A DNA stretch of 64,000 nucleotides from Candidatus Omnitrophota bacterium (GTDB lineage Bacteria > Omnitrophota > Gorgyraeia > Duberdicusellales > 4484-171), in NCBI GenBank assembly GCA_021735655.1, contig JAIPGM010000003.1, positions 1-64,000 of the forward strand. Direction: 5' to 3'. The stretch's first letter is position 1. Each line of letters opens with the position of its first letter. This document shows, in pieces, positions 20,660 to 58,490 of the stretch. Position numbers and translations under genes: made by a program. Under the pieces are notes generated by a model. That model was not told the DNA's origin, did not search any database, and worked only from the letters and a program-made list of their open reading frames with translations.

Positions 20660-22423
20660 ATGAATAAATTATATGAAAATTTGCTACCTAAAAATGGATA
20701 TGTAATTGGCGAGCTTGCTTGTGGCCACGAAGGTGATTTTAAGAAGTTAAAGCAACTCATCGAGGCCGTAGCTGTAAGTGGAGCAGATGGCGTCAAATTT
20801 CAAATTTTTATTCCTCAAGAAAGAGCGAACAAAGATCATCATGAGTGGGATATTTTTAATAAGCTGGCGATTTCAGAAGAGGATTGGAAGGCAGCTGCAA
20901 ATTATGCCCGCCAAAAGAAGTTAGCAGTATTTGCCGATATTTTTGGCGAGGCTAGTTTTCAAATAGCAAAAAGAATTGGTGTCGATGGATTTAAAATACA
21001 TTCAGAAGATTTGCTCAATACTTTTTTTATCAGCCGAGTTGCTCAGGAAAATAAAATTCTTATGATCGGAGTAGGCGGGGCACATCGTATCGAGATCTAT
21101 CAATTACTTAATTATTTGAAAACCCAAGGATTAGTTGAAAATCTATTATTAACTACTGGAGTACAGACCTTTCCTACTCCGCTAGAAGTACATTTTTTAC
21201 AAGAGGTCAGCGATCTTCTTTCTTGTTATAGTTCTTTCGGTGTTAAGCTGGCCTTCGCCGATCATATTTCTGGTGATTTAGAAGAGGCCAAAATCGTACC
21301 CTTGATGGCTTTGGCTAAGGGGGCTGCAGTTATTGAGAAGCATGTTACCATTAACAGAGATGATGAGTGGGAGGATTATCAGTCGGCTTTAAGCAAAGAG
21401 GTCTTTGGCGATTTTGTTAAACAACTAAAAAAACTTTCACCGCTTCTAAAAGAACTAGGGCCACAAACCCCATTTGAGATCCAATACCGGAAAATATTTA
21501 AGAAGACTCCGGTAGCGGCAATAGATTTAGAATCTGGTCAGCTGATTAAGCCGGAGCATATCAAATATGTTAAGCATGCAAAGCATGCAGTCCCTCTTTC
21601 GGCTTTAAATCTTGTAGGTAGGCAATGCAAAAATAATCTAAGCAAGGGGCAGGTTTTACGCCTTAAGGATATTAAGGTTAAAGTTGGCGGGATTATCGTA
21701 GCCCGGTGTAGCTCTAATCGTCTTCCTAGCAAAGCCACAAGAAAAATTTTGGAGCGCGAGACAATAGCTTTACTTATTGAGCGAATCAAGCGCTGTCGCA
21801 ACCTTGATTGTGTGGTTTTAGCTACTTCGACTGATCCTTCTGATGATGTATTGGAGGAAATCGCCAAACGAGAAGGCGTCCTTCCTTTTAGAGGATCTTT
21901 AGAGAACCTTTCTTTGCGTTTTTATCAGGCAGCTAAACATTACAATATCGATCATATCGTTAGAGTTACCGGAGATGACATTATTCGTGACGAAGTGATG
22001 ATTGATAAAATCGTAGAAAGCCATTTATTTAACTCTTCGGAAGTCACTTTTGCCGATAATATGCCTTACGGGACAGTGAGTGATGTTTTTAGCTTAAATG
22101 CTATAGAAACGATATTAAATACAGCCCAGGTCCCTGAGAACACCGAATATTTAGAATGGTATTTAGGTAACAGCCGTTATTTTAGCATTAATTATGTTAA
22201 ATCTGACTATGAATTTAACCCGAGGTGGAGGCTTACTTTAGATTACGAAGAAGACTTTCTTTTTTTTAAGGAAATCTTCGAGTGTTTTTATGGCCATAAG
22301 CCTGATTTTACTTTAGCTGATGTTTTAAAATTGTTAGCCGACCAGCCACAAATAGCCGAGATTAATATGGCTAAGACCGCTAAATATACTAAAAACGATA
22401 TTAACGTTAAATTAACTATATAG
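20660..22423 (+). CDS. fusion protein: SpsE/NeuB-like TIM-barrel domain + SpsF-like cytidylyltransferase domain
   Basis: N-term: YVIGELACGHEGD...GADGVKFQIF (a divergent NeuB motif). C-term: GGIIVARCSSNRLPSKAT and DCVVLATSTDPSDD, typical of the SpsF/CTP-transferase family. Confidence 0.65.
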   Translation: MNKLYENLLPKNGYVIGELACGHEGDFKKLKQLIEAVAVSGADGVKFQIFIPQERANKDHHEWDIFNKLAISEEDWKAAANYARQKKLAVFADIFGEASFQIAKRIGVDGFKIHSEDLLNTFFISRVAQENKILMIGVGGAHRIEIYQLLNYLKTQGLVENLLLTTGVQTFPTPLEVHFLQEVSDLLSCYSSFGVKLAFADHISGDLEEAKIVPLMALAKGAAVIEKHVTINRDDEWEDYQSALSKEVFGDFVKQLKKLSPLLKELGPQTPFEIQYRKIFKKTPVAAIDLESGQLIKPEHIKYVKHAKHAVPLSALNLVGRQCKNNLSKGQVLRLKDIKVKVGGIIVARCSSNRLPSKATRKILERETIALLIERIKRCRNLDCVVLATSTDPSDDVLEEIAKREGVLPFRGSLENLSLRFYQAAKHYNIDHIVRVTGDDIIRDEVMIDKIVESHLFNSSEVTFADNMPYGTVSDVFSLNAIETILNTAQVPENTEYLEWYLGNSRYFSINYVKSDYEFNPRWRLTLDYEEDFLFFKEIFECFYGHKPDFTLADVLKLLADQPQIAEINMAKTAKYTKNDINVKLTI

Positions 22424-26888: not shown

Positions 26889-27887
26889 ATGAAAGTTTTG
26901 TTTGTAGGTTTGGGCAGCATAGCTGGCCGCCATATTAAAAACATAAAAATTATTGATCAGGATATTCAGATTGCCCTTTGGCGTCAGTTATCCAAAGAGA
27001 CCGATTTAGGTGAAGTTGCCTCTTTAGTGAGCGAGGTGTTTTTTTCTGAAGCTGATGCTGTGGGATGGAAGCCAGATGTTGTTTTTGTGACTAATCCAGC
27101 ACCGAGACATTGTCAAACAGCATTAACTTTTGCCAGAAATAATTGTCATCTATTTATTGAGAAGCCTTTAGCGGTAAGCGAAGATGGTTTAGATGAATTG
27201 GCTAAAGAAGTAGCTAAGAGGAAATTAGTTGCAATGGTTGGTTATGTTTTGCGGTTTTCTGAGCCGATGAAAATAATGAAGGAGACAATTGGTAAAGGTT
27301 TAATTGGAAAGCCACTCTCAATAAGGGCTTCGGTTGGGCAAAACTTATTGGATTGGCGTCCTGGGAAAGATTATCAGGAAACTGTAAGCTCACGGAGTGA
27401 TTTAGGCGGCGGTGTATGTTTTGAATTGAGTCATGAAATTGATTATGTTCGCTGGCTCTTTGGTGAAGTTAAAGAATTGCGCGCTTTATTTGGAAAAGTA
27501 GGAGATCTTAATATAGATGTTGAGGACTTAGCTGATATTTTGCTTAAGTTTGATTCCGGAGCTTATGGCAATATTCATCTTGATATGGTAGATCAAGCTA
27601 AAGAGCGTTCTTGTCGGATTGTTGGCAGTAAAGGTACTTTGACGTGGGATAGCTGCGATGAAAATCGGGTTCGAGTATTTAAAGCTGATGAGGGCATTTG
27701 GCAGGATCTCTATTGTTCTCCTTCTGAGGATAGGAATGAAATGTATATAGCTCAGATTAAACATTTTTTTGATTGCATTGCTAATAATAAACAAGCTTTA
27801 GTTTCATTGGCTCAGGCAAGAAAGGTATTACAGATAGTGATAAATATAAAAAATTTAGAGAAAGACAAGAAGGCTATTCCAGTATGA
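26889..27887 (+). CDS. Gfo/Idh/MocA family oxidoreductase
   Basis: VLFVGLGSIAGRHI and LFIEKPLA. Confidence 0.7.
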   Translation: MKVLFVGLGSIAGRHIKNIKIIDQDIQIALWRQLSKETDLGEVASLVSEVFFSEADAVGWKPDVVFVTNPAPRHCQTALTFARNNCHLFIEKPLAVSEDGLDELAKEVAKRKLVAMVGYVLRFSEPMKIMKETIGKGLIGKPLSIRASVGQNLLDWRPGKDYQETVSSRSDLGGGVCFELSHEIDYVRWLFGEVKELRALFGKVGDLNIDVEDLADILLKFDSGAYGNIHLDMVDQAKERSCRIVGSKGTLTWDSCDENRVRVFKADEGIWQDLYCSPSEDRNEMYIAQIKHFFDCIANNKQALVSLAQARKVLQIVINIKNLEKDKKAIPV

Positions 27888-28594
27888 AACCGTATATACT
27901 CGGGGCTATCTTTGCTCGTGGTGGCTCAAAAGGTTTGCCTAAGAAAAATATAAGAGACTTAGCTGGTAAGCCTCTCATTGCTTATGCTATTGAAACAGGC
28001 AAAGAAATTTTATCTATTGACAGGCTTATAGTCTCAACTGATGACGAAGAAATAGCTAAAGTAGCAAAGGAGTACGGGGCCCAAGTACCTTTTATGCGGC
28101 CAAAGGAATTGGCAACTGATGATTCTCCGGAGTTGTTGTCATGGCAGCAAGCAATTAAGGCCATTGAAGCAGAGTCTAAGGACAAAGTGGATGTTTTGGT
28201 GGTTATACCTACAACTTCACCTTTGAGGGAAGCTGAAGATTTGCAGAATTGTCTTGATGCTTTATTGAATAGTGATGCTGATATTGTGGTAGCTGTAAAA
28301 GAAGCAGAAAGAAACCCTTACTTTAATATGTTAACGCTTGATAAAGATGGTTATGCCAATTTACCTATTGCAGATAAAGGAGCTTTTACTCATCGTCAGC
28401 TTGCACCTAAAGTTTACGATATGACAACTATTGCTTATGTTGCTAGAGCCGCATATATACTTGAGACTCCATCTGTTTTAGCTGGCAAGGTTAAGACGGT
28501 GATAGTACCTAGAGAACGGGCAATAGATATTGACGATATGATGGATTTTGAGATAGCAGAATTTCTTATGAAGAAGAGGAGAAATAGTAAATGA
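27884..28594 (+). CDS. CMP-nonulosonic acid synthetase (acylneuraminate cytidylyltransferase family)
   Basis: AIFARGGSKGLPKKN N-terminal motif. 236 aa. Confidence 0.8.
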   Translation: MKPYILGAIFARGGSKGLPKKNIRDLAGKPLIAYAIETGKEILSIDRLIVSTDDEEIAKVAKEYGAQVPFMRPKELATDDSPELLSWQQAIKAIEAESKDKVDVLVVIPTTSPLREAEDLQNCLDALLNSDADIVVAVKEAERNPYFNMLTLDKDGYANLPIADKGAFTHRQLAPKVYDMTTIAYVARAAYILETPSVLAGKVKTVIVPRERAIDIDDMMDFEIAEFLMKKRRNSK

Positions 28595-37181: not shown

Positions 37182-38381
37182 ATGAGCTCTATGAATAAAA
37201 AAATTACTGTCAGTACATCAATTAATGACTTAATTCCTTTAAGCGTTCCTGAAATTAAGGGTAATGAATGGAAATATATAAAGGAGTGCCTAGATACCAA
37301 TTGGGTTTCATCAGTAGGAAGTTATGTTGATCAATTTGAAAATGCTGTAGCTGATTATGTTGGGCGCGGTTATGGTGTAGCTTGTGTTAATGGTACATCA
37401 GCCTTGCATGTAGCTCTTTTACTTTCGGGTATAAAATCTCAAGAGGAAGTTTTACTTCCGGCGCTTACCTTTGTCGCACCGGCCAATGCTATTTGCTATA
37501 CTGGGGCAAAGCCAGTTTTTATTGACGTTGATCTTGATAATTGGCAAATAGATACAGGAAAGATTTTAGGGTTTTTGAAAAAAGAGTGTAAATATCAAAA
37601 AGGAAAGTTAATTAATAAGAATACCGGTAGAGTAATTAAAGCAATAATGCCTGTGCATATACTAGGACACCCGGCTGATATGGACGCTATCATGAGCATT
37701 GCCCGAAAATATAAACTAAAAGTTATTGAAGATGCTGCTGAAGGATTAGGGTCAGCCTATAAAAATCGACCTCTGGGAATTTCAGGAGATATTGCTTGTT
37801 TTAGCTTTAATGGAAACAAGATATTAACTACTGGCGGCGGAGGTATGGTTGTTGTTGATAAAAAATCCTGGTCTGATCGGGCCCGTTATCTTATAACTCA
37901 AGCCCGGAATAATGTCTTAGAGAATATTCACAATGAAATTGGCTACAATTACCGCCTGACCAATATTCAAGCTGCTATGGGTTTTGCCCAGATGGAGCAA
38001 CTCGATAAATTTGTTGAGAAAAAGAGAGATATTGCTCGTCGATATAATGAGCAATTAAAAGATGTACCGGGAATCGGCTTACCAAAAGAAGCTTCCTGGG
38101 CTAAATCCAATTACTGGCTATATACAATCTTTGTTGACAGAGCTAAATATAGAATTGATAGCAGAGCTTTATTAGAAAAACTAAAAAGATCTAATATCCA
38201 GACTCGGCCTCTGTGGCACCCTTTACATTCCCTAAAGCCGTTTAAAAAGTGTTTTTCTTACAAGATAAAAGTAGCCAATAAATTGTATAAAAATTGTTTG
38301 AGCTTGCCTTCATCAGTAGGGCTTACCAAGAGCGATCAAAAGAAAGTCATCGACATTATAAAACGCAGTAGGAGCTTGTAA
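37182..38381 (+). CDS. DegT/DnrJ/EryC1 family PLP-dependent sugar aminotransferase (LegC-like)
   Basis: NGTSALHVAL and FSFNGNKILTTGGGG, with Lys present. Confidence 0.8.
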   Translation: MSSMNKKITVSTSINDLIPLSVPEIKGNEWKYIKECLDTNWVSSVGSYVDQFENAVADYVGRGYGVACVNGTSALHVALLLSGIKSQEEVLLPALTFVAPANAICYTGAKPVFIDVDLDNWQIDTGKILGFLKKECKYQKGKLINKNTGRVIKAIMPVHILGHPADMDAIMSIARKYKLKVIEDAAEGLGSAYKNRPLGISGDIACFSFNGNKILTTGGGGMVVVDKKSWSDRARYLITQARNNVLENIHNEIGYNYRLTNIQAAMGFAQMEQLDKFVEKKRDIARRYNEQLKDVPGIGLPKEASWAKSNYWLYTIFVDRAKYRIDSRALLEKLKRSNIQTRPLWHPLHSLKPFKKCFSYKIKVANKLYKNCLSLPSSVGLTKSDQKKVIDIIKRSRSL

Positions 38382-38393: not shown

Positions 38394-39434
38394 ATGAGCC
38401 CAGACATGAATATAGTGCGTTCCCAGAAACTTGCCGATAAAATTGTTATTGTAGACGGACAACCCGGTTGCGGTAAAACTATGCTTTCACCGATTGTTGC
38501 TGCTTTGGATAGGGTGGAGTTACTTATGTTTGTTTATGAGATAGAATATTTTTGCGCTTTAAGATATTTACAAAAAATGGATAAAGATACAGCCGAAACT
38601 TTAATTAAATTGATTACTGATTTAAGAATTTATAATGCAATGATGTCGCGGGAAGTAAATTTTCGCTTCAGCGATGCTTCAAGCGCCTTTAAAGATATAA
38701 ATCCCCTGAAATACATTAGGAGGCTTTTTCAAAAGGGTGATGACTTGGTCCCTGAAAGAATAAAGAACCAGAGACCAATTTTGCATTTGGCTACCCATGA
38801 TCTCTTAAGCAGGGCCGATTCAGTTTTTGCTGCTTTAGGTGAAAATCTTGTTTTTATAGAGGTGGTGAGGCATCCTTTATACATGCTTAAACAAGAAGCA
38901 GTTAATATGCAGCGGCTATTCTTATCCGATCCTAAGCATTTTGAAGTATATTTTTCTTATAAGGATAAAGAGTTGCCTTATTTTGTTTATGGGTGGGAGG
39001 ATTTATTTTTTTCTTCTAATCATATTGAAAAAGCTATCTATTTAATCAATAGCATGACTGAGAGAACAGAGGCTTTTAAGAATAATGTAGAGGAAAAGTT
39101 GAACGGAGCTAAGTTGATAACAATTCCTTTTGAAGGTTTTGTGATAAGTCCTGAACCTTATTTGAAAGAAATAGAATTAGCTTTAGACACAAAAGTAACT
39201 AAGGCTACGCGTAAAATGATGAAACGTCAGAATGTGCCACGTAAGATGTATGCTCAAGGTGTTAAACTCGATGTTTACGAAAAGTATGGATGGGAGGCAC
39301 CTAAATCAACAGATGAGTATAGTGAATTAAACCTGCGTCGGAAATTTGCCCAAGATAATGCTTCTGAGGATGCAATGGTTGTGCTTGATAGGCTTTCTAA
39401 AAAGTATGAAGATGAATATTTAAATAAAAAGTAA
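38394..39434 (+). CDS. P-loop protein, sulfotransferase-like (tentative)
   Basis: GQPGCGKT P-loop at residues 22-29. The later VVRHPLY resembles the 3'-PAPS-binding RxP motif of sulfotransferases. Confidence 0.3.
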   Translation: MSPDMNIVRSQKLADKIVIVDGQPGCGKTMLSPIVAALDRVELLMFVYEIEYFCALRYLQKMDKDTAETLIKLITDLRIYNAMMSREVNFRFSDASSAFKDINPLKYIRRLFQKGDDLVPERIKNQRPILHLATHDLLSRADSVFAALGENLVFIEVVRHPLYMLKQEAVNMQRLFLSDPKHFEVYFSYKDKELPYFVYGWEDLFFSSNHIEKAIYLINSMTERTEAFKNNVEEKLNGAKLITIPFEGFVISPEPYLKEIELALDTKVTKATRKMMKRQNVPRKMYAQGVKLDVYEKYGWEAPKSTDEYSELNLRRKFAQDNASEDAMVVLDRLSKKYEDEYLNKK

Positions 39435-39448
39435 AAGAGAGGTTTATT

Positions 39449-40111
39449 GTGAAAACAATTGTATTAGTTCCGGCAAAACTTAAAAGTGACAGAGTTCCTT
39501 TTAAAAATATAAAACAGTTAGGTGGAGTTCCTTTAGTCAATTATACCATGCGTACTTTAAATAAACTTTCAGACATTAATGATATTGTTGTTTTTGCCTC
39601 AGAGCCTTCCATATGCGAGTATATACAGCGCGGATTAAAATATACATTCCTGGAGCGTCCGACAGAGCTGGATACTCAAGATACAAAAATACAGGATATT
39701 ATAAGAGAGTTTTTAAACAGAAGTGATGCCGATATAGTTGTCCTAGTGCATATTACTTCACCATTTTTGCAGGCTGAAACAATCTCTGACTGCATAAAAA
39801 AGGTTCATTCTGGTCAGTATCATACAGCTTTCACTGCATATGAAGTTAGAAAATTCTGTTGGTTTCGCGATAAACCGCTTAACTATTCTTTAGATAAACC
39901 TACACCACGCACTCAGGATATAAACCCGGTAGTTGTAGAGCAGGCTAGTTTATATGTATTTAGGAGAGAGGTTTTTGAAAAAACAGGCCAGCGGATTTGC
40001 TCTAAGCCTTATATTAAATATATTGATCATTTCGAGGGCCATGATATTGATACTCCGGAAGACTTTAGGGTTGCAGAATTGATTGTTAATACAGGTCTCT
40101 TTGCAATATAG
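39449..40111 (+). CDS. cytidylyltransferase (CMP-sugar synthetase / SpsF-like family)
   Basis: GTG start. IVLVPAKLKSDRVPFKN motif. Confidence 0.65.
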   Translation: MKTIVLVPAKLKSDRVPFKNIKQLGGVPLVNYTMRTLNKLSDINDIVVFASEPSICEYIQRGLKYTFLERPTELDTQDTKIQDIIREFLNRSDADIVVLVHITSPFLQAETISDCIKKVHSGQYHTAFTAYEVRKFCWFRDKPLNYSLDKPTPRTQDINPVVVEQASLYVFRREVFEKTGQRICSKPYIKYIDHFEGHDIDTPEDFRVAELIVNTGLFAI

Positions 40112-40122
40112 GATGTAATTAA

Positions 40123-41262
40123 ATGGATCAAGAAACAATTTTTAAGAAAATTTACAATGTCGAACTTAACCAGGATAAGTATGACATTGTAATTGGTAAA
40201 GGTTTACTTGAAACTGCTGTTTTAGAAGCCTTAGAGAAACGGACTAAAAATAAGAATGTTGTTTTTGTCTTTGATGTATTTTTTCAAGATAGAAGCAATG
40301 CTTTTATAGATTTTTTATCTAAGGCTGGCTACAAAGTTTACCCATATTATATGGTAGCTGGCAAGCATAATAAAACTATAAGTGAGGCAATAAAAATATA
40401 CGAAATTCTTGAGGCTAACAGTCTATCTAGAGACTCAACTATAGTAGCTTTAGGAGGTGGTGTTCTTGGCGATTTAGCTGGATTCGTAGCAAGCACATAT
40501 CATCGCGGGATGAAGCTTATAAATATACCGACCACCCTTACGGCCATGATTGACAGTAGCATTGGAGGCAAGGTCGCTATAAATTTCAGAAAGACTATTA
40601 ATGCCATAGGAAATTACTATCATCCTATAGCAAATGTTATTGATTTTAAATTTATTAGTACATTACCTCAACGTGACTTTAAGGCTGGACTGGCTGAGAT
40701 AATAAAATGTGCAATTATTAACGATAAAGAACTGTTTGATTATCTTAAATCTAATAGCCAGAAGATTCTTGACCGGGATGAAGATTCTTTATTCAATATC
40801 ATGTGTCGAGCCATAGAGATTAAACTTGTTCATGTATCAGGGGATGTGAAGGAGAAGAATGAGAGACTCAAGCTCAATTACGGCCACACCTTAGGACATT
40901 CCATAGAGATTTCGACCGATGTCTTAGAGGAGATTTATCGCCATGGAGAGGGGGTGTCTCTTGGCATGGTTGCTGCAGCATTTTTGGCAAGAAAATATTT
41001 TGGACAAGGTCAAGATATCTTAGATGCTCATGAGGAGATTCTTAACCAGTATGGCCTTCCAACCCGAGTTCATGCAAAAGATATTGGTTTTGAATATAAG
41101 AGTTTGATTGAAGAATGTATGCGAAATGTTCATAAAGATAAAAAGAAAAAGGATAACAAACTCAGATTTATTCTTCCTGATGAAATTGGTAAATGCCAGG
41201 TCTACGATCGTGTGGCAGATGATGCTATCAGGGAGGCATTTGTTTATCTTATAAAGGAGTGA
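40123..41262 (+). CDS. 3-dehydroquinate synthase-like sugar phosphate cyclase / Fe-ADH superfamily protein
   Basis: LGGGVLGDLAGFVASTYHRGMKLINIPTTL and HSIE/HG metal-ligand motifs. Confidence 0.65.
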   Translation: MDQETIFKKIYNVELNQDKYDIVIGKGLLETAVLEALEKRTKNKNVVFVFDVFFQDRSNAFIDFLSKAGYKVYPYYMVAGKHNKTISEAIKIYEILEANSLSRDSTIVALGGGVLGDLAGFVASTYHRGMKLINIPTTLTAMIDSSIGGKVAINFRKTINAIGNYYHPIANVIDFKFISTLPQRDFKAGLAEIIKCAIINDKELFDYLKSNSQKILDRDEDSLFNIMCRAIEIKLVHVSGDVKEKNERLKLNYGHTLGHSIEISTDVLEEIYRHGEGVSLGMVAAAFLARKYFGQGQDILDAHEEILNQYGLPTRVHAKDIGFEYKSLIEECMRNVHKDKKKKDNKLRFILPDEIGKCQVYDRVADDAIREAFVYLIKE

Positions 41263-41263
41263 T

Positions 41264-42025
41264 ATGAAAGAAAAAAAATCTTTAGAAAGAAAAACTTGTA
41301 TTATAACTGGATCTGGTAAGGGAATTGGAAGAGCAGCCGCAGAGCTTTTTTATAATCATGGGGCTAACTTGGCATTGATTACCAGAGATAAACAAGACTT
41401 GATATCCTTAAGGGACGATGTCGGATTTGACGATGAACGAATTTTTCTAAGCCAGGGAGACGTCTCTGATGAGGAAACGGTTAAAAGATTCATACAAGAA
41501 ACTATAGGAAAATTTAAAAAAATAGATGTTCTTATTAATAATGCCGGTATACGTTTCAGGAAAGATTTTTTAGACACCACGACAGAGGAGTGGGATCAAG
41601 TAATTAATAATAACCTCAATAGCACATATCTTTTTTCTAGGGAAGCAGGGCGAAATATGGTTTCAAGAAAAGAGGGCAAAATTGTTAATATTGTATCGAT
41701 TGTAGGTACGCTTGGATTGCCTCAGCTTTCCGCATACGGAGCATCAAAAGGAGGAGTAATCACGCTTACGAAATGCTTAGCTTTAGAGTGGGCCAAATGC
41801 AATATTAATGTTAACGCTATTGCCCCAGGATTTTGCGAAACATCGTATGTAGAAAAGTTTAGAAAAAAAGAAGAACTATATAAATTTACTATAGAAAGGA
41901 CGCCGCAGAAAAAATGGGGAACTTCTCTTGACATAGCAGAAGCCTGTCTTTTCTTATCCACAGAAGCATCTAAGTATATTACTGGTGAAGTGTTAAATGT
42001 TGATGGTGGTTGGAGTGCTTGGTAA
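41264..42025 (+). CDS. short-chain dehydrogenase/reductase (FabG-like SDR)
   Basis: ITGSGKGIGRAAA, NNAG, YGASKGGV. Ends DGGWSAW. Confidence 0.8.
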   Translation: MKEKKSLERKTCIITGSGKGIGRAAAELFYNHGANLALITRDKQDLISLRDDVGFDDERIFLSQGDVSDEETVKRFIQETIGKFKKIDVLINNAGIRFRKDFLDTTTEEWDQVINNNLNSTYLFSREAGRNMVSRKEGKIVNIVSIVGTLGLPQLSAYGASKGGVITLTKCLALEWAKCNINVNAIAPGFCETSYVEKFRKKEELYKFTIERTPQKKWGTSLDIAEACLFLSTEASKYITGEVLNVDGGWSAW

Positions 42026-42091: not shown

Positions 42092-44260
42092 TTGAGACAA
42101 ATATTTAAAATGGGAATGAGGGGTGAGGAGAAAAATAATCAGAGAAGTTATTATATACAAAATCTTACAGTCGCTCCTTGGCTAGTATCGATAGCTCCTT
42201 ATCTAATGCGTAATTTTTTCAAGGGGAATAGAAATATCAAAGTTTATTTTATCGATGCTTCAATATGTGGTTTATGGCTGGCGCGCTTCATGTTATTATT
42301 TTTTGGTCTCAAGCTTAATGAGTTGAAATTTCGTTTGGTTGATGTCCATGATGACGATGGTGTTCTTCTGCATCTACGAGTAGATTATTTTGATTCTACG
42401 GTTGTGCAAAAATATATATTGGAAAGGCCTATTTTCTCGGAGCTGTTTTTAAACAAGCCTGCTAAAAGTAGAATAGCTATGTTTTTGGCAAAACGCATTT
42501 TTGCCTCTGCTAGTAAGCCTGAATCGACATTAGATAGAGCAGTTTATCTCATTCAAGTAGTTAAGCAAAAGTCAAAAGAGTATGTAGCTGAATGCTTGCA
42601 GCCTGTTTTGTTTTTGGACAGAAGGTTGTGGATGAATGAAATTAAAAGATATGCGTGCAAGCATAATATATCTGTTATTGGCGCTAAAAGTTTTAATATC
42701 AATTTTAAATATTTTTTATTAGGGTTTTTGGGACCAAAAATAAATATTTTAAAAAATATCTATTTTTGGTTTTTAAGAATAAAAAGAAGTTTTTGCAGTA
42801 AGTATGGCTGGATTGTTAAAAATAAGAAATCAATTTCAATCGTTATCAGACATAAAAAAAATAATGCAGATAATAGCATTATTGGTAGCCAGGTAAAGCT
42901 TGGGGTTAACTATTATGGTCATCTTAATCTTAATAATCCAGAACTGTATTCGGATTTATTTTTTTTACAGCAGTCAGATTTATCAGGAAAAGATATTTTA
43001 ATCGTATCTAATATGCTGTTTGATCCCATTGATGATAAAAAATTAATGGAGATTGCCAAGCATGATATGAATGTAGTTGCGCTTTCAGCAAAGGCAACTA
43101 ATAGTTTTTCCGTGCCGTTTTTTTACCATTGGCCGAGTCGTAGCTCAAATTCATCGTTTAAGTTTATCTCAAAAAATGCTTATAATGGCGATGAGCGCAG
43201 ATGGTTTCTGCGGCAGATGAGAGACTACTATAAGGATTGTAATTATTGGCAGGATTTTTTTGCAAAGCATAATGTTAAGGCATTTATGACTTGGTATAAG
43301 TATGATGCTTCTCACTGTGTTGTTGCCGATGCCATGCGGAATGTTGGAGGAATAATGGCTGTTTATCAACGCGCCTTTGAGGAATTTCCTTCTTGCAAGA
43401 CAACGATTGCGTCTGATGTTGTGTTTGGTTTTTCGCCTGCAAATGCTGAGATTGAACGTCTTTCCGGTTCACAGATTTCCTACCATATTTCTACAGGTTA
43501 TTATGCTGACTACAGGCTACCTTTGCTAAAGGCGCATGCACAGAGGGTGCGCACATCTCTACAGCAAAGAGGAGCTAAACAAATTATTGCTTATTTTGAT
43601 GAAAATTCCGGAGCTGATTCTCGTTGGCATAATGGGCATGAATCTACAATAGCTAATTATGATTTTTTACTTAAAAAAGTTTTATCTCAAAAATGGTTTG
43701 GTCTTATTTTAAAACCTAAGGTTCCCTCAACGTTAAGATTGAGGCTGGGGCTAACGGCAGACTTACTTAAGGAAGCAGAAGCAACTGGAAGGTGTTTTGT
43801 CTTTGAGGCAGGGGCCTTGCATAGTGCCTACCCTCCCGCTATAGCTGCTCTAGCTTCTGATATCGCCATCCACGGTCATCTGTATGCTGCAACAGCTGGG
43901 CTTGAATCAGCGCTTGCAGGAGTCCCTACTCTTTTACTTGATCGTGAAGGCTGGTCGATTAGTAAATTATACCATTTGGGTTTAGGACGGGTAGTTTTTA
44001 CTGATTGGCAAAGTCTTTGGAAAACATATATTGAATATTGGCAGGATTCCAGGAAGGTGCCAGGCTTCGGCGATTGGTCTTCGATGATAAATGATTTAGA
44101 TCCTTTCAGAGATGGCCGAGCAGCAGAAAGAATAGGTACATACTTGAAGTGGTTGCTTGACGGCTTTAAGCAAGGGCTTAAACGAGAAGATATTATGGCT
44201 TCTGCCGCAGAGCGTTATGCTAGGATTTGGGGAAGTGATAAAATAGCTACACTGGGGTAG
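42092..44260 (+). CDS. large hypothetical protein (722 aa), GT-B-like C-terminal region; candidate glycosyltransferase
   Basis: The C-terminal AIAALASDIAIHGHLYAATAGLESALAGVPTLLLD resembles the GT-B nucleotide-binding half. Confidence 0.3.
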   Translation: MRQIFKMGMRGEEKNNQRSYYIQNLTVAPWLVSIAPYLMRNFFKGNRNIKVYFIDASICGLWLARFMLLFFGLKLNELKFRLVDVHDDDGVLLHLRVDYFDSTVVQKYILERPIFSELFLNKPAKSRIAMFLAKRIFASASKPESTLDRAVYLIQVVKQKSKEYVAECLQPVLFLDRRLWMNEIKRYACKHNISVIGAKSFNINFKYFLLGFLGPKINILKNIYFWFLRIKRSFCSKYGWIVKNKKSISIVIRHKKNNADNSIIGSQVKLGVNYYGHLNLNNPELYSDLFFLQQSDLSGKDILIVSNMLFDPIDDKKLMEIAKHDMNVVALSAKATNSFSVPFFYHWPSRSSNSSFKFISKNAYNGDERRWFLRQMRDYYKDCNYWQDFFAKHNVKAFMTWYKYDASHCVVADAMRNVGGIMAVYQRAFEEFPSCKTTIASDVVFGFSPANAEIERLSGSQISYHISTGYYADYRLPLLKAHAQRVRTSLQQRGAKQIIAYFDENSGADSRWHNGHESTIANYDFLLKKVLSQKWFGLILKPKVPSTLRLRLGLTADLLKEAEATGRCFVFEAGALHSAYPPAIAALASDIAIHGHLYAATAGLESALAGVPTLLLDREGWSISKLYHLGLGRVVFTDWQSLWKTYIEYWQDSRKVPGFGDWSSMINDLDPFRDGRAAERIGTYLKWLLDGFKQGLKREDIMASAAERYARIWGSDKIATLG

Positions 44261-44298: not shown

Positions 44299-45051
44299 GT
44301 GAATATACAAATTTTTATAAAAAAAGTTAAAAATAAACTGAAAACATTTTGGTTGCAAATAGCTACCTTAAGGAGTGCTAATTTGCGTTGGTTGTTTCGG
44401 AATCGTTATTTGCGTATGGATGCTAATGTAACAACAAATCCGGTTGAGAGAAGGATTTTTCATATTGATCGATATAAATTCGCCGTGAATAAACTTAGAA
44501 AAGTTTATAGCGATACAAGGAATTTACTTATTGTTGATGTTGCTTGTGGTACAGGGTATGGCTCGGATATTTTAAAAAAAGTTAATCCGAAAAAAATAAT
44601 AGGTATTGATATTTGTCCTGAGACAGTTAAATATGCTCAAAAAAAATATGGAACGCATCATTGTATTTTTAATACTAGCGATGCTGTCGAAATGAATATT
44701 ATTAAATCAGGAACTGTCGATGTGGTCGTTTCATTTGAAACCATTGAGCATTTAGAGCAGCCGATAATTTTTTTGAAGAACGTAAAAAGGGTATTGAAGA
44801 ATAAAGGATGCTTAATTATTTCCACACCTAATAGTTGGGGAGAAACAAGAGACCATAGGTTTGATTATGATTATCAATTGCTGAAGACTCACCTTGAACA
44901 ATTCTTCACGATAGACTCTATGTATGTTCAAAATAGCGGAAGTATGAATTTATGGATGAATAGAGGTTTTCAGCGGCGGTTAATTCCAGTGAGTCCCGAT
45001 AACGTTAATGAGGCCGAATGTTTTATAGCCATAGCCAGAAATTATTTTTAA
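44299..45051 (+). CDS. class I SAM-dependent methyltransferase
   Basis: GTG start. LIVDVACGTGYGS motif I and DVVVSFETIEHL. Confidence 0.65.
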   Translation: MNIQIFIKKVKNKLKTFWLQIATLRSANLRWLFRNRYLRMDANVTTNPVERRIFHIDRYKFAVNKLRKVYSDTRNLLIVDVACGTGYGSDILKKVNPKKIIGIDICPETVKYAQKKYGTHHCIFNTSDAVEMNIIKSGTVDVVVSFETIEHLEQPIIFLKNVKRVLKNKGCLIISTPNSWGETRDHRFDYDYQLLKTHLEQFFTIDSMYVQNSGSMNLWMNRGFQRRLIPVSPDNVNEAECFIAIARNYF

Positions 45052-45082
45052 TAGTGTTGTTTTGTGCAGAGCGAATAAATTT

Positions 45083-46018
45083 ATGAGAAATAAAATTAAT
45101 TTTTTAAAGGGATATGTCAAAAGGTATGTAGTTGCTGCATATAAACGACAGAAGTTACAGGCAGGTGAGTTTCCCCCCCAGCTATGGATAGAGAATACCA
45201 ATCATTGTAATGCAGCGTGTGTCATGTGTCCTCGTGATAAGCATAATCGGTCGCTTGGTTTTATGGAGTTTTCCCTTTTTGAACGTCTGATTAAGGAAAT
45301 AGCTGTACATAAAAATAATGTTTCAGCTGTTCATATGCATAATTATGGCGAACCGCTTATGGATAAAGAATTAATCAAAAAAGTAAAACTAGCTAAGGAT
45401 TATGGGATAAAACATGTTTATTTTGTTACCAACGCAGCATTGTTGACTAGTGATTTATCAGAAAAGCTAATAGCCTCAGGGCTTGATCAATTTAAAATAA
45501 GTTTTTATGGAACCGATAGACAAACATATAACGCTACAATGAGAGGGCTTGATTTTGATCAAACAATGTCTAATGTTAAGCAATTTTTCCAAATACGAAA
45601 GAAGATGAAGTCCCTTCAACCTAAAGTTATAATTCAATACCTTCCTCAGTCTCACAACAAGGCAGAAATTAGCAAATTTAAAAGTATTTTTGATTCCATG
45701 ATTGATTCTAAATTAGGCGATAGGTTGAATATTTATTCTTTGTTGAATTTCGGGGAAGGGAGAAGTTATAATAACTTTGCCAGAAGAATAGTTAGTTCAA
45801 TATGCAATTATCCGTGGAGGACTATGGTGGTATTGCATGATGGCCGGGTTACGGCTTGCTGTATGGATTATAATGGGGTTTTATCTATGGGAAATGTTAC
45901 TCAGAGCACTATAAAGCAAATATGGAATAACCAAACTTATAAAAAAATCAGAGAGGATTTTAAAAAGCTTGATTACAAAGAATACCAGGTTTGTAGAAAT
46001 TGTGATCTTATTTTTTAG
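45083..46018 (+). CDS. radical SAM protein
   Basis: HCNAACVMCP CxxxCxxC motif. Starts at ATG 45083 or at the upstream in-frame TTG 45062. Contains a C7 tract at 45173-45179. Confidence 0.6.
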   Translation: MRNKINFLKGYVKRYVVAAYKRQKLQAGEFPPQLWIENTNHCNAACVMCPRDKHNRSLGFMEFSLFERLIKEIAVHKNNVSAVHMHNYGEPLMDKELIKKVKLAKDYGIKHVYFVTNAALLTSDLSEKLIASGLDQFKISFYGTDRQTYNATMRGLDFDQTMSNVKQFFQIRKKMKSLQPKVIIQYLPQSHNKAEISKFKSIFDSMIDSKLGDRLNIYSLLNFGEGRSYNNFARRIVSSICNYPWRTMVVLHDGRVTACCMDYNGVLSMGNVTQSTIKQIWNNQTYKKIREDFKKLDYKEYQVCRNCDLIF

Positions 46019-46028: not shown

Positions 46029-47828
46029 ATGAGAATAATTTGTTTTTTAAATCCAAAATTAATTAGCAGTCACAAAATTCCCGTTTTTAATAAAAATCGT
46101 TATATTATTTCCTATGATGAGTTTAAACCGCGGGAAGCTATTACTAGAGATAGCAACCTTAAACAAATTATAATTTTTCCAATAACAAATCAAGAGCGGG
46201 CCACTTGCGAAAGAGAGTATATCGCTAATGTTTCAAAATTATCCGAGATTTTTGATTCATTGGAGTGGTGGGCGAATCCAATTTCTGAGAAAAATGAACA
46301 TTCTTCTATACAGTATAAAGATTTGTGTTTATTTTTTTCTTTAATAAAAACTATAGATAAACATAGGGATGAACGATGCGACATTTTGGTTTATGGGGAC
46401 GGTAGTATTTATAATATTCTGAGAAAGCATTATTCGAACAAGGGGATACAGGTAGTATTCATAGGTAGCAAACTCTTTAGAAACATCCAAAGTTTTATAT
46501 ACCAGATACTAAAAATCGTATTATTATTTTTTAAAATTATTTCACGCAAGTTATTTTTGAGGAAAATAGCCAGTAAACTAAGGAAACAATTAAGTAACAA
46601 AAGCTGTTATTATGTAATAAGGACATGGCTTTATAATCAACCAGATGCTAATTTCAGAAATGATGCTTTTTTTGGAAGATTGCCTGAATACGCAGCGAAT
46701 CGAGGCAATAAAGTATTACTGCTAGGTGGAATTATTGATAATTATCGAAAGATTTTGCAAAAAATATTAAAGTCTGATGGTAAAACTATTGTTATTCCGG
46801 AAGAGTATTTTTTAAAATATTCAGATATTTTTAAGTTATTCGTTTATTTTAAATTTAAAATCAGGAAGCTTGATAGCAAAATTATTTTTAAGGGAATTGA
46901 TGTAACAGATTACTATTCTCAAGAGATTTTTAAAGGATTTTGGCAAGACTCATATATTTATAATATTATTCGTTATATGATTGCAAAGCGTTTTGGCGAA
47001 ACTGTTAATTTTAATGTTTTCCTGCAGACTTTTGAAAATTATGCTTGGGAAAAAGTGACCATTAAAGGGATTAAGGCGGCAAGGAGCAATTGTAGGGTAT
47101 TAGGATTTCAGCATGCCTTCGTGTCAAGGAATTCATTTAAGTATTTTCCTGGACAACAGGAATTAGACAGGATTCCTTTACCAGATAAAATTATTACTAT
47201 GGGTGAGAGGACAAAAGAGATTTTGCAAAATTACGGAGCTTATCGCAAAGAACAAATCGTAGTTGGTTGTGCTTTACGCCAACAGTATCTCGATGATTTG
47301 TCTTTTATAGAGAGGCGGCGTTGCAATAAAATACTAGTACCATTGACAATGGTTACTCAGGAGTCAATCAGAATTATTAAGTTTCTTTGCGACTCTAATA
47401 TTTCTAAGACAAATAAAAATATTGTTATTAGGCCTCATCCAGCACGGGATTTTAAATCAGTAAAAGAAAAGATTCCATTTGAAATACCCAGTAATTTTAT
47501 AATTAATAATTGTAAGACGATGAAGGAAGAGTTATCTGATGCAGGTATGGTTTTGTATACTTGGTCAACGATTTCTGCCGAAGCATTAAGATTGGGGTTG
47601 CCGGTAATTTATCTGGATATATTAAGGCCACTTTATGTTGATCCTTTATTTGAATGTGATGCTCTTAAAAGAAAGGTTAGTGAGGCTGATGAGCTTGTGC
47701 CGGCAGTTGACAGCCTTTATGGGATAAGTAATGATGATTTTGAAATTGAACGGAAGATGGCCAGTGAGTATAGTAAAAGTTATTTTTATCCAGTAACAGA
47801 AAGTAATTTAGCACATTTTTTTTCGTAA
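46029..47828 (+). CDS. large hypothetical protein (599 aa), GT-B-like; candidate glycosyltransferase/polymerase
   Basis: C-terminal IVIRPHPARD...DAGMVLYTWSTISAEALRLGLPVIYLD resembles a GT-B donor-binding domain. Confidence 0.3.
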   Translation: MRIICFLNPKLISSHKIPVFNKNRYIISYDEFKPREAITRDSNLKQIIIFPITNQERATCEREYIANVSKLSEIFDSLEWWANPISEKNEHSSIQYKDLCLFFSLIKTIDKHRDERCDILVYGDGSIYNILRKHYSNKGIQVVFIGSKLFRNIQSFIYQILKIVLLFFKIISRKLFLRKIASKLRKQLSNKSCYYVIRTWLYNQPDANFRNDAFFGRLPEYAANRGNKVLLLGGIIDNYRKILQKILKSDGKTIVIPEEYFLKYSDIFKLFVYFKFKIRKLDSKIIFKGIDVTDYYSQEIFKGFWQDSYIYNIIRYMIAKRFGETVNFNVFLQTFENYAWEKVTIKGIKAARSNCRVLGFQHAFVSRNSFKYFPGQQELDRIPLPDKIITMGERTKEILQNYGAYRKEQIVVGCALRQQYLDDLSFIERRRCNKILVPLTMVTQESIRIIKFLCDSNISKTNKNIVIRPHPARDFKSVKEKIPFEIPSNFIINNCKTMKEELSDAGMVLYTWSTISAEALRLGLPVIYLDILRPLYVDPLFECDALKRKVSEADELVPAVDSLYGISNDDFEIERKMASEYSKSYFYPVTESNLAHFFS

Positions 47829-56776: not shown

Positions 56777-57753
56777 ATACGCAAGTAAAATTTTGGAAAG
56801 GCAAAAGAGTCTTGATTACGGGCTATGAAGGATTCTTAGGATCTAATCTTGCTAAAGTTCTGCTAAACTTTGGTGCAAAGATATCGGGTTTGGATATTTT
56901 GACTAGAAGAAAAGATACAATCCTTACTCAAAAAGAATTAGCCAAGATAAAGATAATTAAAGGAAATGTTGATAATTTATCTTTAGTAAAGAGGATTTTA
57001 AGGAATGATAAAATAGAGGTTATTTTTCATCTCGCTGCAGAGGCTTTAGTTGGCGAGTGTCTAAAAAGACCAGTCAAAGGATTTTCGACCAATATTAAGG
57101 GAACTTGGAATATTTTAGAAGCTTGGCGGCAAACAAAAATAGCCAAAGCAATAGTTGTAGCTTCAAGCGATAAAGCCTACGGAAGTCATTCTAAGCTTCC
57201 TTATAAAGAAGATAGTGCGCTTTGCGGTTTGCATCCCTATGATGTTTCGAAGTCATGTGCTGACTTAATTGCTCATGCTTATCATAATACCTATGGAGCG
57301 CCGGTAGTGATAACTCGCTGTGGTAACATTTTTGGTCCGGGAGACTTCAATTTTTCCAGAATTGTTCCTGAAACCTTACGTTCGGTAATTAGAAATAAAA
57401 CTTTGGTTATTCGTAGTGATGGAAAGTTCACTCGTGATTATGTATATGTTGATGATATTGTAGCCGGATATATAAACTTAGCTCAAAAATCTAAAAAGTT
57501 AAAACTATTTGGCCAGGCTTTTAATTTTAGCGCCGAGCAGCCGCTTTCAGTTTTAGCTTTGGTAAAGTTGATTTATAAATTAGCTGACAGAAGATCTAAC
57601 TATAAAATCTTAAAACAGGCGAAATATGAAATTAAGCATCAATATCTTTCATCTAGGAAGGCTGCTAGAGTTCTTGGCTGGAAACCAAAGCTGAAGCTAG
57701 ATAAGGCTTTGGAGAAAACTTACCAGTGGTATAAAGATAATCTAAGCAAATGA
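56770..57753 (+). CDS. rfbG: CDP-glucose 4,6-dehydratase
   Basis: FWKGKRVLITGYEGFLGS, YDVSKSCAD. ATG 56770 overlaps the rfbF stop; an alternative in-frame TTG lies at 56761. Confidence 0.85.
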   Translation: MVNTQVKFWKGKRVLITGYEGFLGSNLAKVLLNFGAKISGLDILTRRKDTILTQKELAKIKIIKGNVDNLSLVKRILRNDKIEVIFHLAAEALVGECLKRPVKGFSTNIKGTWNILEAWRQTKIAKAIVVASSDKAYGSHSKLPYKEDSALCGLHPYDVSKSCADLIAHAYHNTYGAPVVITRCGNIFGPGDFNFSRIVPETLRSVIRNKTLVIRSDGKFTRDYVYVDDIVAGYINLAQKSKKLKLFGQAFNFSAEQPLSVLALVKLIYKLADRRSNYKILKQAKYEIKHQYLSSRKAARVLGWKPKLKLDKALEKTYQWYKDNLSK

Positions 57754-58490
57754 AGATAAATTTTTTAGGAACAAATGGATGGTACGATACTGATACCGGA
57801 AATACTCTTTGTATTCTTATTGAAACTAAAAAAGAATATATTATTCTCGATGCCGGAGGCGGTTTTTACAAAATTGGTCAATATATAAAGAAAAAGAAGC
57901 CAATTTATCTTTTCTTAAGCCATTTTCATCTCGACCACATTATTGGACTTCATACCTTATTGCTAGGTAACTTTTCTCAGGGGATTAAGCTTTACGGACC
58001 ACCGGGAGTAAAGAAATACTTATCACAAATAGTAAATTATCCTTATACAGCGCCAATTTCTAAGTTAAAAACAAAGGTTATCGTTAATCAAATTAAAAAA
58101 GAAGTACGTTTTCCTTTTAAGGTTGAGTTTGGCAAGCTGCTTCATCCTTCATTATGTTACGGCTATCGGTTTAATTTGGAAGGCAAAACAATTGTTTATT
58201 GCACCGATACCGGAATTTGCAGTAATTTATATAAGTTAGCTAGGGATTCTGATTTATTTATTACTGAATGCTCGGCGACTGCCGGAAAAAAGGAAAAGGA
58301 TTGGCCTCATTTAACGGCTCAGGATGCAGCTAAGGTTGCTAAGAAATCCCAAGTAAAAAAATTATTTTTAGTTCATTTTAATGCTTCCTTATTTAAAACT
58401 GAAAAGCAACGCAATATGGCTAAGGCACAAGCAAAAGAGATATTTGGGAATACTTTTGCGGCCAGTGACGGACAAGTAGTTAATTTATAA
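57750..58490 (+). CDS. MBL-fold metallo-hydrolase
   Basis: HFHLDHIIGL (HxHxDH) motif. 246 aa. Confidence 0.6.
   Translation: MKINFLGTNGWYDTDTGNTLCILIETKKEYIILDAGGGFYKIGQYIKKKKPIYLFLSHFHLDHIIGLHTLLLGNFSQGIKLYGPPGVKKYLSQIVNYPYTAPISKLKTKVIVNQIKKEVRFPFKVEFGKLLHPSLCYGYRFNLEGKTIVYCTDTGICSNLYKLARDSDLFITECSATAGKKEKDWPHLTAQDAAKVAKKSQVKKLFLVHFNASLFKTEKQRNMAKAQAKEIFGNTFAASDGQVVNL

Follow-up and report, generated by a model that had tools for sequence, protein, structure and literature searches.

Gene content of the block

The window analysed here, a 64 kb stretch of DNA from a Candidatus Omnitrophica metagenome-assembled genome (MAG), is a single-strand glycan locus. All its open reading frames (ORFs) of at least 150 aa but one are on the + strand, the exception being nested in a + strand gene, and its GC content ranges from 32 to 41%. 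We focused on a block of four + strand ORFs. The first (38394-39434; 346 aa, ATG start) codes for a P-loop protein with a sulfotransferase fold, from a family without annotation. It is followed by genes for a cytidylyltransferase of the NeuA/KdsB superfamily that we call CT3 (39449-40111; 220 aa, GTG start; type A, see below), an AroB-like homologue of dehydroquinate synthase (DHQS) (40123-41262; 379 aa, ATG start) and a classical short-chain dehydrogenase/reductase (SDR) of the carbonyl reductase kind with the C-terminus DGGWSAW (41264-42025; 253 aa). The four ORFs are separated by 1-14 nt, and purine runs that resemble Shine-Dalgarno sequences are located 5' of the four starts. Our scans detected no terminator-like site between the genes inside the block, and promoter-like matches were no more frequent there than expected by chance.

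ORF calling reproduced the four genes of a preliminary description of this DNA, all of them on the + strand. That description also placed the block directly after an aminotransferase gene for nonulosonic acid (NulO) biosynthesis, and the gene that precedes it (37182-38381) indeed codes for a LegC-family aminotransferase (TIGR04181, 488.7 bits versus a cut-off of 420). It was likewise correct in counting 39449 as a third cytidylyltransferase, given that two other CTP_transf_3 domains are present, one at 27884-28594 and one in the C-terminal half of a NeuB fusion (20660-22423). In total, the window codes for three NeuB homologues and three cytidylyltransferases. What did not hold is the view of the four genes as one coupled unit: 38394 goes with legionaminic-acid genes and with a protein of ~700 residues, and the CT3, DHQS-like and SDR genes also occur without it. 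The block is thus a composite of two units, a three-gene cassette (39449, 40123 and 41264) and the neighbouring enzyme 38394. Furthermore, since orthologues of the 3'-flanking genes follow the cassette in other loci, the functional unit is larger than the four-gene block, and a putative transferase of the activated product is part of it.

A cytidylyltransferase, AroB-like enzyme and reductase cassette

Metagenomic loci were collected in a scan seeded on CT3-specific motifs, and counts were made on the loci with enough sequence. Synteny was scored if the AroB-like gene started at most 900 nt 3' of CT3 with at least 43% identity, and at 45% identity or more for the SDR. CT3 orthologues (45-80% identity) are found directly 5' of the AroB-like gene in 60 of the 63 loci, SDR orthologues (52-74% identity) directly 3' of it in 27 of 35, and a KdsB-like gene comes after the SDR gene in 12 of 26. 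Surface-glycan loci with the cassette come from at least seven phylum-level lineages, bacteria of the Candidate Phyla Radiation (CPR) among them, and may or may not contain NulO genes. Sulfurovum mangrovi (L006; CP087124, at about 2.112-2.115 Mb) and Arcobacteraceae (L009-11) harbour CT3, AroB-like, SDR and KdsB-like cytidylyltransferase genes inside a lipopolysaccharide (LPS)-core locus, and the same series was found in two Pseudomonadales MAGs (L016, L017). The AroB-like, SDR and KdsB-like genes directly follow Wzm/Wzt genes in the CPR lineage Candidatus Zambryskibacteria (L007/8), and they are also found in a Legionellales MAG (L018). Brocadiaceae (L012), Saganbacteria (L013), a Deltaproteobacterium (L014) and a further MAG (L015) have one or two CT3 genes with the AroB-like and SDR genes in NulO or glycan loci. 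This glycan setting holds wherever the flanking genes could be identified, which was the case outside the Pseudomonadales and Legionellales MAGs. In many lineages, the second transferase of the cassette passes the KdsB subfamily cut-offs. We rejected its interpretation as a mere housekeeping kdsB, as the gene is repeatedly part of the cassette itself, in Gammaproteobacteria, Legionellales and CPR bacteria alike. Full-text literature searches identified no description of a CT3/AroB-like/reductase cassette.

CT3 of the window matches the CTP_transf_3 domain (PF02348; 67.5 bits versus 22.6), and the best solved relatives of CT3 are CMP-sialic acid synthetases and KdsB. Its N-terminal motif PAKLKSDRVPFKN, a basic CTP-binding loop, and its C-terminal HDIDTPEDF motif are kept in type A orthologues. 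The score of 39449 on the PseF model is 74.7 bits, far below the cut-off of 205.7, and its scores on the KdsB models are at most 48 bits for cut-offs of 155 or more. As no cut-off was reached for PseF, KdsB or NeuA, these models assign no substrate (pseudaminic acid, 3-deoxy-D-manno-octulosonic acid (Kdo) or Neu5Ac) to CT3 at the equivalog level. The domain and the solved relatives agree with the initial identification of 39449 as an enzyme of the CMP-sugar synthetase type. The CDP-activated polyol or cyclitol that had been suggested along with it is unlikely, because this transferase family makes CMP-ulosonates, not CDP-alcohols; the formation of CDP-glycerol or a CDP-cyclitol was rejected since the transferase is of the wrong family.

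CT3 proteins fall into two types. Type A, which includes the protein of the window, keeps the P[AS][KR]LxSxRxPxKN motif and is the sole cytidylyltransferase of its cassette. In type B proteins IP[YF]W... replaces this motif, and the basic CTP-binding loop is therefore lost. Wherever a type B locus continues beyond the reductase gene, a canonical transferase, KdsB-like or PseF-like, is encoded next. Because type A stands alone while type B brings a canonical transferase, the simplest reading is that each cassette would need exactly one working CMP-transferase, and that its end product would be CMP-activated. Loop-less CT3 homologues accompanied by a second cytidylyltransferase were found in loci L006, L009-L011, L016, L017 and L126-L162. 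These type B proteins may be pseudo-enzymes or have acquired a new function.

The third gene of the cassette, 41264, was correctly taken for an SDR ending in DGGWSAW. Its product matches adh_short_C2 (209 bits) and adh_short (186 bits) and has the TGSGKGIG, NNAG and YGASK motifs of classical SDRs. Its matches to the KduD, FabG and gluconate-5-dehydrogenase models were all below threshold, and no equivalog cut-off was reached. The glycine motif includes a basic residue as in FabG, which suggests that the enzyme uses NADPH. Eight loci form a lineage without the SDR (L143, L145, L149, L151, L153, L154, L157 and L158). In L149 (7779-9581), the only one of them that was examined, the SDR is replaced with an NADP(H)-dependent aldo-keto reductase, and a PseF-like cytidylyltransferase follows. 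That two unrelated reductase families occupy the same position argues that the step after the AroB-like enzyme is the reduction of a carbonyl made by that enzyme.

The product of 40123 contains the DHQ_synthase (PF01761, 133 bits) and DHQS_C (PF24621, 120 bits) domains. On the aroB equivalog model TIGR01357 it reaches 318 bits, just over the cut-off of 305, and the existing database name of the protein is '3-dehydroquinate synthase'. Its score on TIGR04425, a family of AroB-related putative sugar phosphate phospholyases, is 215 bits (cut-off 400), and that on the glycerol-1-phosphate dehydrogenase (G1PDH) model NF002022 is 41.5 bits, far below the cut-off of 413. Its closest solved relatives are true DHQSs (152-190 bits), with Vibrio cholerae AroB (3okf, 190 bits) at the top, followed by 2-deoxy-scyllo-inosose synthase (2d2x, 123 bits), ValA (4p53, 117 bits) and 5tpr (96 bits). 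Domains and synteny are thus in line with the preliminary description, which saw in 40123 a DHQS-superfamily enzyme in a glycan context. The kinship that it considered with sedoheptulose-7-phosphate cyclases (EEVS/DDGS) or G1PDH-like enzymes does not agree with these scores. We rejected EEVS, DDGS, EVS and 2-deoxy-scyllo-inosose synthase as identities of 40123 because the protein is closer to DHQS and its residues for the carboxylate of 3-deoxy-D-arabino-heptulosonate 7-phosphate (DAHP) are intact, and G1PDH/AraM because of the NF002022 score.

For a comparison of residues, 30 members of the AroB-like family were aligned with 77 canonical AroB proteins. The latter came from an alignment-based genome scan in which, among the matches listed, three of 80 loci were family members and most were canonical AroB, which we reused as the comparison set; a single-protein search of the genome contigs with 40123 yielded no match. 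The 13 positions of DHQS that contact Zn or DAHP (R128, D144, K150, N160, E192, K195, K234, R248, N252, H255, H259, H274 and K340 in 40123) are kept in 29 or 30 of the 30 family members and in at least 76 of the 77 canonical proteins, and the alignment with 3okf agrees. In the Aspergillus nidulans DHQS, we take the Zn ligands to be E194, H271 and H287, and the contacts with the phosphate, carboxylate and hydroxyl groups of DAHP are presumably R130, D146, K152, N162, K197, K250, R264, N268, H275 and K356. The equivalents of K250 and R264, which bind the DAHP carboxylate, are invariant in the AroB-like family. As the phosphate- and carboxylate-binding residues of the DAHP site are all retained, 40123 should bind DAHP or a phosphorylated substrate of very similar shape.

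Other positions set the family apart. The Glu of the conserved xGE motif, present in 76 of the 77 canonical AroB proteins, is replaced with Lys in 29 of the 30 family members (E81K). The family also shows Q167H, a short insertion at E270 and L273R, which neighbours a His ligand of Zn. In a neighbour-joining tree with the 77 canonical proteins the AroB-like family is monophyletic. Its members share a median identity of 53% across phyla and at most 40% with any canonical AroB, those of the same phylum included, and 40123 has no shikimate-pathway neighbours. Judged by its sequence, 40123 is a member of a separate AroB-like clade, distinct from canonical aroB. According to the preliminary description, classification as a bona fide AroB with a complete DAHP site, in a genome lacking another aroB, would have pointed to a housekeeping enzyme. 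The site is complete, but clade and synteny are not those of a housekeeping gene.

Several genes downstream of the block extend the cassette. A class I S-adenosylmethionine (SAM)-dependent methyltransferase (44299-45051, + strand; Methyltransf_11/25/31) has orthologues at the same position in L014 (48% identity) and in L118 (56%). Next comes a BtrN-like radical SAM/SPASM enzyme (45062-46018, + strand; Radical_SAM and SPASM domains), whose nearest solved relative is BtrN (2e-14, the next one being at 1e-5) and which has orthologues of 51-60% identity in L014, L015 and L099. The last gene (46029-47828, + strand; 599 aa) codes for a protein of an unannotated family with no Pfam match and 81 homologues, none of which is named. 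Its AlphaFold2 model has a pLDDT (predicted local distance difference test) score of 89.9, and the 338 Foldseek matches to this model at E≤1e-3 are all of the GT-B class (glycosyltransferases, 2-epimerases, WaaA and TagF/TarL), making this GT-B-fold protein a candidate transferase for the cassette product. Its orthologues (25-41% identity) are found 3' of the cassette in L013-L015, L108, L113, L114, L116 and L121. Orthologues of the methyltransferase, radical-SAM and GT-B genes all follow the cassette in L014 and L015, and some of them do so in L013, L099, L108, L113-L116 and L121. The co-occurrence of the predicted GT-B protein with the cassette fits a product that is a real glycosyl donor.

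A putative route from DAHP to surface glycans

We propose, at slightly less than even chances, that the cassette diverts DAHP into a CMP-activated C7 acid of the 3-deoxy-ulosonic type, the preferred form being 3,7-dideoxy-heptulosonate made by interrupted DHQS chemistry. This proposal is based on the DAHP-shaped site, the carbonyl reductase, the presence of one competent CMP-transferase per cassette, the glycan context and the GT-B partner in the window. The AroB-like enzyme 40123 would take DAHP, or a very close 3-deoxy-2-ulosonate phosphate, from the shikimate pathway and perform the first DHQS steps, i.e. oxidation at C5 with NAD(P)+ and Zn followed by β-elimination of the 7-phosphate. The resulting keto intermediate would be reduced by the NADPH-type SDR 41264 instead of, or before, cyclising, which would yield a seven-carbon 3-deoxy-2-ulosonic-type acid, preferably 3,7-dideoxy-heptulosonate. 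The NeuA/KdsB-type enzyme 39449 would then join this acid to CMP and the GT-B protein 46029 would transfer it to a glycan, with the methyltransferase 44299 and the BtrN-like radical-SAM enzyme 45062 as putative tailoring enzymes. We infer the use of DAHP as the substrate, the order of the steps, the lack of cyclisation, the identity of the CMP product and the acceptor, as well as the donor of 38394. Kdo-8-phosphate and NulO-9-phosphate were rejected as substrates of 40123: their phosphate would be one carbon too far from a ring hydroxyl that can be oxidised, and the pocket for DAHP shows no change.

A number of points weigh against this proposal. We found no glycan containing such a C7 acid in the literature, the supply of DAHP in CPR bacteria has to be assumed, and the predicted GT-B fold of 46029 is non-diagnostic of its donor. 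In addition, the BtrN-like neighbour 45062 recalls cyclitol chemistry, and the full set of DHQS residues fits equally well an ordinary cyclising DHQS that makes dehydroquinate, which the SDR would convert to a quinate-type carbocycle. We consider such a carbocyclic product rather unlikely. It would require that 40123 is a fully competent, cyclising DHQS whose 3-dehydroquinate is reduced by the SDR to a cyclitol carboxylate of the quinate type. This carba-analogue of a 3-deoxy-ulosonic acid would be tailored by the methyltransferase and the BtrN-like radical-SAM enzyme, linked to CMP via the tertiary hydroxyl beside the carboxylate and attached to a glycan. It would be an isomer (C7H12O6) of the 3,7-dideoxy-heptulosonate, and the CMP adduct of either acid has a calculated mass of about 497 Da. 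The family has all the DHQS residues without any sign of lost cyclisation, 40123 passes the aroB cut-off, and the related family TIGR04425 is called 'cyclizing' by NCBI. BtrN itself acts on a cyclitol that comes from a DHQS-like cyclase, and quinate would display the same C(OH)(COO-)-CH2 motif that KdsB/NeuA enzymes activate. However, by established chemistry CMP on the tertiary carbon of a saturated carbocycle would give no oxocarbenium ion, and no known glycosyltransferase chemistry would apply to it, yet a GT-B transferase co-occurs with the cassette. The minimal cassettes of Campylobacterota, Gammaproteobacteria and CPR bacteria also lack the radical-SAM gene.

The cassette might alternatively modify an existing ulosonic acid, legionaminic acid in this window or Kdo in the LPS-core loci, with the AroB-like enzyme and the reductase oxidising and re-reducing or deoxygenating it and the extra cytidylyltransferase re-activating it. 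The constant association of the cassette with ulosonate-type cytidylyltransferases, often beside NeuB, KdsA or KdsB genes, is compatible with this idea, as are the three NeuB homologues and three cytidylyltransferases of the window; the accessory SDRs described in a study on Acinetobacter baumannii (PMC5595891) provide a precedent. We nevertheless deem it improbable, because the retention of all DAHP phosphate and carboxylate residues implies that the substrate is phosphorylated and has the shape of DAHP. There is no phosphate in legionaminic acid, that of Kdo-8-phosphate would be one carbon too far for a DHQS-type elimination, and no NeuB is encoded near the cassette in CPR bacteria, Legionellales and Campylobacterota. 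As for the possibility that 40123 is the housekeeping aroB of the organism, placed in a glycan locus by chance, the equivalog score, the catalytic residues and the database name of the protein would agree with it, but the order CT3, AroB-like gene and reductase gene recurs in dozens of loci across phyla, one of them in a CPR bacterium beside a Wzm/Wzt transporter. The tight cross-phylum clade, with no more than 40% identity to canonical AroB even of the same phyla, and the family-specific substitutions such as E81K make this explanation hardly credible.

The C7-acid proposal can be set against known systems. With AroB (TIGR01357, PF01761 and PF24621), 40123 shares the fold, the domains and identical Zn- and DAHP-contact residues, and it would be expected to perform the same NAD+/Zn-dependent oxidation and phosphate elimination on a DAHP-shaped substrate. 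It differs from AroB in belonging to a separate clade and in its place in glycan loci, where its gene shares an operon with those for a cytidylyltransferase and a carbonyl reductase. The CMP-Kdo and CMP-nonulosonate pathways (KdsA/KdsC/KdsB; NeuB/NeuA, LegI/LegF and PseI/PseF) have in common with the cassette the final activation by a CTP_transf_3 enzyme, the GT-B partners and the setting in LPS-core, O-antigen or capsule-like loci. In contrast, the skeleton of the cassette product would come from DAHP via a DHQS homologue and not from a dedicated condensation of phosphoenolpyruvate with an aldose. The logic that we propose, with transient oxidation beside the carbon that holds the leaving group, elimination and a separate NAD(P)H-dependent reduction leading to a terminal deoxy sugar, would be analogous to that of the nucleoside diphosphate (NDP)-hexose 4,6-dehydratase and 4-ketoreductase pair (RmlB/RmlD). 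The folds are unrelated, the leaving group in the cassette would be phosphate rather than water, and the substrate is probably a free sugar-acid phosphate and not an NDP-sugar.

The butirosin pathway likewise combines a DHQS-superfamily enzyme, the 2-deoxy-scyllo-inosose synthase BtrC, with a SPASM/twitch enzyme, the radical-SAM dehydrogenase BtrN, in one module. Unlike BtrC, 40123 keeps the DAHP carboxylate residues, and it scores higher against true DHQS (190 bits) than against BtrC (123 bits). An aminotransferase is lacking in the core cassette, and a radical-SAM gene in its minimal versions. In A. baumannii, accessory SDRs beside lgaABCDEF are predicted to turn CMP-Leg5Ac7Ac into epimers (PMC5595891). 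According to that study, accessory oxidoreductases including SDRs, encoded directly after the legionaminic-acid genes in the aciABCD/aciE and ela modules, change the final ulosonic acid. The part of it consulted here reports no DHQS homologue in those modules, and the cassette also occurs without legionaminic-acid genes.

There is a nearly balanced chance, in our estimation, that the cassette represents a new member of the CMP-ulosonic-acid-type pathways, fed by an enzyme recruited from the shikimate pathway. If so, it would be a new route from aromatic amino-acid metabolism, via DAHP, to cell-surface glycans, spread by gene transfer across distant phyla. A broader and more tentative claim is that many uncultivated and a few cultivated bacteria, among Omnitrophota, CPR/Zambryskibacteria, Saganbacteria, anammox Brocadiaceae, Campylobacterota, Legionellales and Pseudomonadales, possess an unrecognised surface sugar, a CMP-activated C7 acid derived from DAHP (3,7-dideoxy-heptulosonate or a quinate-like carba-sugar) by a recruited DHQS paralogue, and that 38394 belongs to a Walker A-containing sulfotransferase-fold lineage that decorates legionaminic-acid glycans. 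The AroB-like genes also pose an annotation problem: as they pass the aroB cut-off and are named '3-dehydroquinate synthase', they can be mistaken, in CPR bacteria and other reduced genomes, for what is left of a shikimate pathway. The cassette is a short, self-contained unit with carriers that can be cultivated, among them Sulfurovum mangrovi and Arcobacter.

The sulfotransferase-fold protein and other features of the locus

38394 has no Pfam or NCBIfam match. Its family comprises at least 473 homologues, unnamed, from Omnitrophota, Margulisiibacteriota, Elusimicrobia, Pseudomonadota and marine metagenomes, and our full-text literature searches found no description of it. The preliminary description had noted its GQPGCGKT P-loop and a later RHP motif, which we located at residues 22-29 and 159-161, and had likened the protein to sulfotransferases that use 3'-phosphoadenosine 5'-phosphosulfate (PAPS). 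As regards the fold, the likeness is real: 38394 adopts a sulfotransferase fold, and its closest structural neighbours are not kinases. It does not extend to the PAPS-binding signature. The 5'-phosphosulfate loop of sulfotransferases, of the PKSGTTW or PRSGTTL type, carries a catalytic Lys or Arg. Gly25 is at that position in the Q-P-G25-C-G-K28-T loop of 38394, which speaks against a sulfotransferase. The loop is instead a Walker A motif, GxxxxGK[ST] (G22-QPGC-G27-K28-T29), with G22, G25, G27, K28 and T29 at least 90% conserved. R159, at the end of the strand of residues 152-158, is invariant, and so is Gln167 (+8), where sulfotransferases have a Ser; we take this region to correspond to their binding site for the 3'-phosphate of PAPS. 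Compared with PAPS-dependent sulfotransferases (TPST, Stf or Sulfotransfer_3), 38394 thus has PGCGKT instead of P(K/R)SG(T/S)T and Gln for Ser in the 3'-phosphate motif, and it reaches no Pfam sulfotransferase model.

Profile searches point in the same direction. The family profile retrieved only ATPase P-loops (Walker A) from the PDB sequences, and in a Pfam scan of 46 relatives, 22 had weak Sulfotransfer_3 matches (best E-value 5e-4), the matches being mostly to NTPase families. No PAPS-synthesis genes were found among the domain and family assignments of the window, which weakens the sulfotransferase reading further. With its perfect GxxxxGKT motif and Gly25 in place of the catalytic Lys or Arg, 38394 might be an ATP-dependent kinase or another NTP-using enzyme on a sulfotransferase-like scaffold rather than a PAPS-dependent sulfotransferase, a possibility to which we give substantial weight, short of even. 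Most likely, 38394 would add an anionic group, sulfate or phosphate, to a nonulosonic acid or its glycan. A role as the kinase that makes the phosphate ester for the DHQS-like enzyme was rejected because 38394 is absent from most cassette loci. The family might serve as a test case for the interconversion of sulfotransferases and P-loop kinases.

The 38394 homologues directly follow HisF, HisH and WbuX genes in L002-4, L005 and L096/97, and in L002-4 and L096/97 they are directly followed by a homologue of the 722-aa protein encoded after the SDR in the window. The L098 homologue has a LegB-like gene on one side and a LegC-like gene on the other, an arrangement close to that of the window. Three close Omnitrophota relatives have the identical order of P-loop protein, CT3, AroB-like enzyme, SDR and 722-aa protein. 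No 38394 homologue is encoded in the cassette loci of Campylobacterota, Gammaproteobacteria and CPR bacteria, or in L012-L015. All five independent loci with a 38394 homologue have a DHQS-like and a CTP_transf_3 gene at most 10 kb away. 38394 thus forms a unit of its own that recurs next to DHQS-like/CMP modules, and it is a divergent sulfotransferase-fold enzyme that is grouped with legionaminic-acid genes and the 722-aa protein. The latter (42092-44260, + strand) is a soluble protein to which no family is assigned, with no match in Pfam, NCBIfam or PDB sequences. It is associated with the P-loop gene and with nonulosonic-acid loci. Its homologues (31-49% identity) were identified in L002 and L096, directly after the P-loop gene, as well as in L013, L014, L099, L103 and L108. 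The TTG start at 42092 has no obvious ribosome-binding site, and in-frame ATG codons at 42110 and 42116 are alternatives.

The DHQS-like genes next to other 38394 homologues score 469 bits (L002) and 397 bits (L005) on TIGR04425, for its cut-off of 400. These TIGR04425-type enzymes keep all 13 DHQS residues. In L002, L005, L096/L097 and L098 they are part of a module with a cytidylyltransferase-cupin fusion, at least one SDR and a GFO/IDH/MocA oxidoreductase. A D-2-hydroxyacid dehydrogenase also belongs to the module, except in L005, and so does a GmhA-like SIS_2 isomerase, except in L002. The module looks like a second undescribed CMP-acid pathway.

Upstream of the block, the + strand genes between 32263 and 38381 code for a pathway of the legionaminic-acid type: HisF-like (32263) and HisH-like (33156) proteins, the WbuX amidotransferase (33888; TIGR03573, 342 bits versus a cut-off of 203), a CBS-nucleotidyltransferase (35116), LegB (36143; TIGR04180, 443 bits, under the cut-off of 475) and LegC (37182). 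Further upstream are legionaminic-type genes for three GFO/IDH/MocA-like oxidoreductases, one of them a weak match, a cytidylyltransferase, an SDR, and NeuB, NeuC-like and PglD-like proteins. The locus encodes three ulosonic-acid synthase homologues, two of which are fusions. In the 795-aa protein at 17191-19578, an N-terminal flavoprotein domain similar to UDP-galactopyranose mutase precedes NeuB and SAF domains, and the 587-aa protein at 20660-22423 is the NeuB-CTP_transf_3 fusion mentioned above. The third NeuB homologue is encoded at 29391. An ORF at 19463-20656 shares 116 nt with the 3' end of the 17191-19578 fusion gene.

Other parts of the window contain unusual genes. In a 655-aa protein similar to dTDP-glucose 4,6-dehydratase (1730-3697), an insert of ~330 residues with a sub-threshold Intein_splicing match (31.9 bits versus 35.8) interrupts the match to Epimerase/GDP_Man_Dehyd, which covers residues 1-82 and 414-636. 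This insert may be an intein inside the sugar dehydratase. The glycan locus also codes for a transketolase split into two genes, one for the N-terminal half and one for the pyrimidine/C-terminal half, and for two B12-binding radical-SAM enzymes (4681-6451, 7391-8887 and 10655-12100 for these genes together), which suggests branched-chain or C-methylated sugars. At its 3' end (57750-62230) are genes for a metallo-β-lactamase-fold protein, a DmpF/DmpG-like pair of acetaldehyde dehydrogenase and 4-hydroxy-2-oxovalerate aldolase, and an acetolactate-synthase-like thiamine pyrophosphate enzyme.

Two of the other loci have unusual gene arrangements as well. In the Saganbacteria locus (L013, 13778-18877), a fructose-6-phosphate aldolase/transaldolase-like domain is fused to a KpsF/KdsD CBS pair, alongside KdsC-like, KdsB and KdsA proteins, and this fusion may represent a non-canonical supply of arabinose-5-phosphate for Kdo. 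In L096 (18076-19594), a gene for a KdsB-like cytidylyltransferase directly adjoins one for a class II pyruvate aldolase of the HpcH/HpaI type, a pair that suggests another route to a CMP-activated 2-keto-3-deoxy acid.

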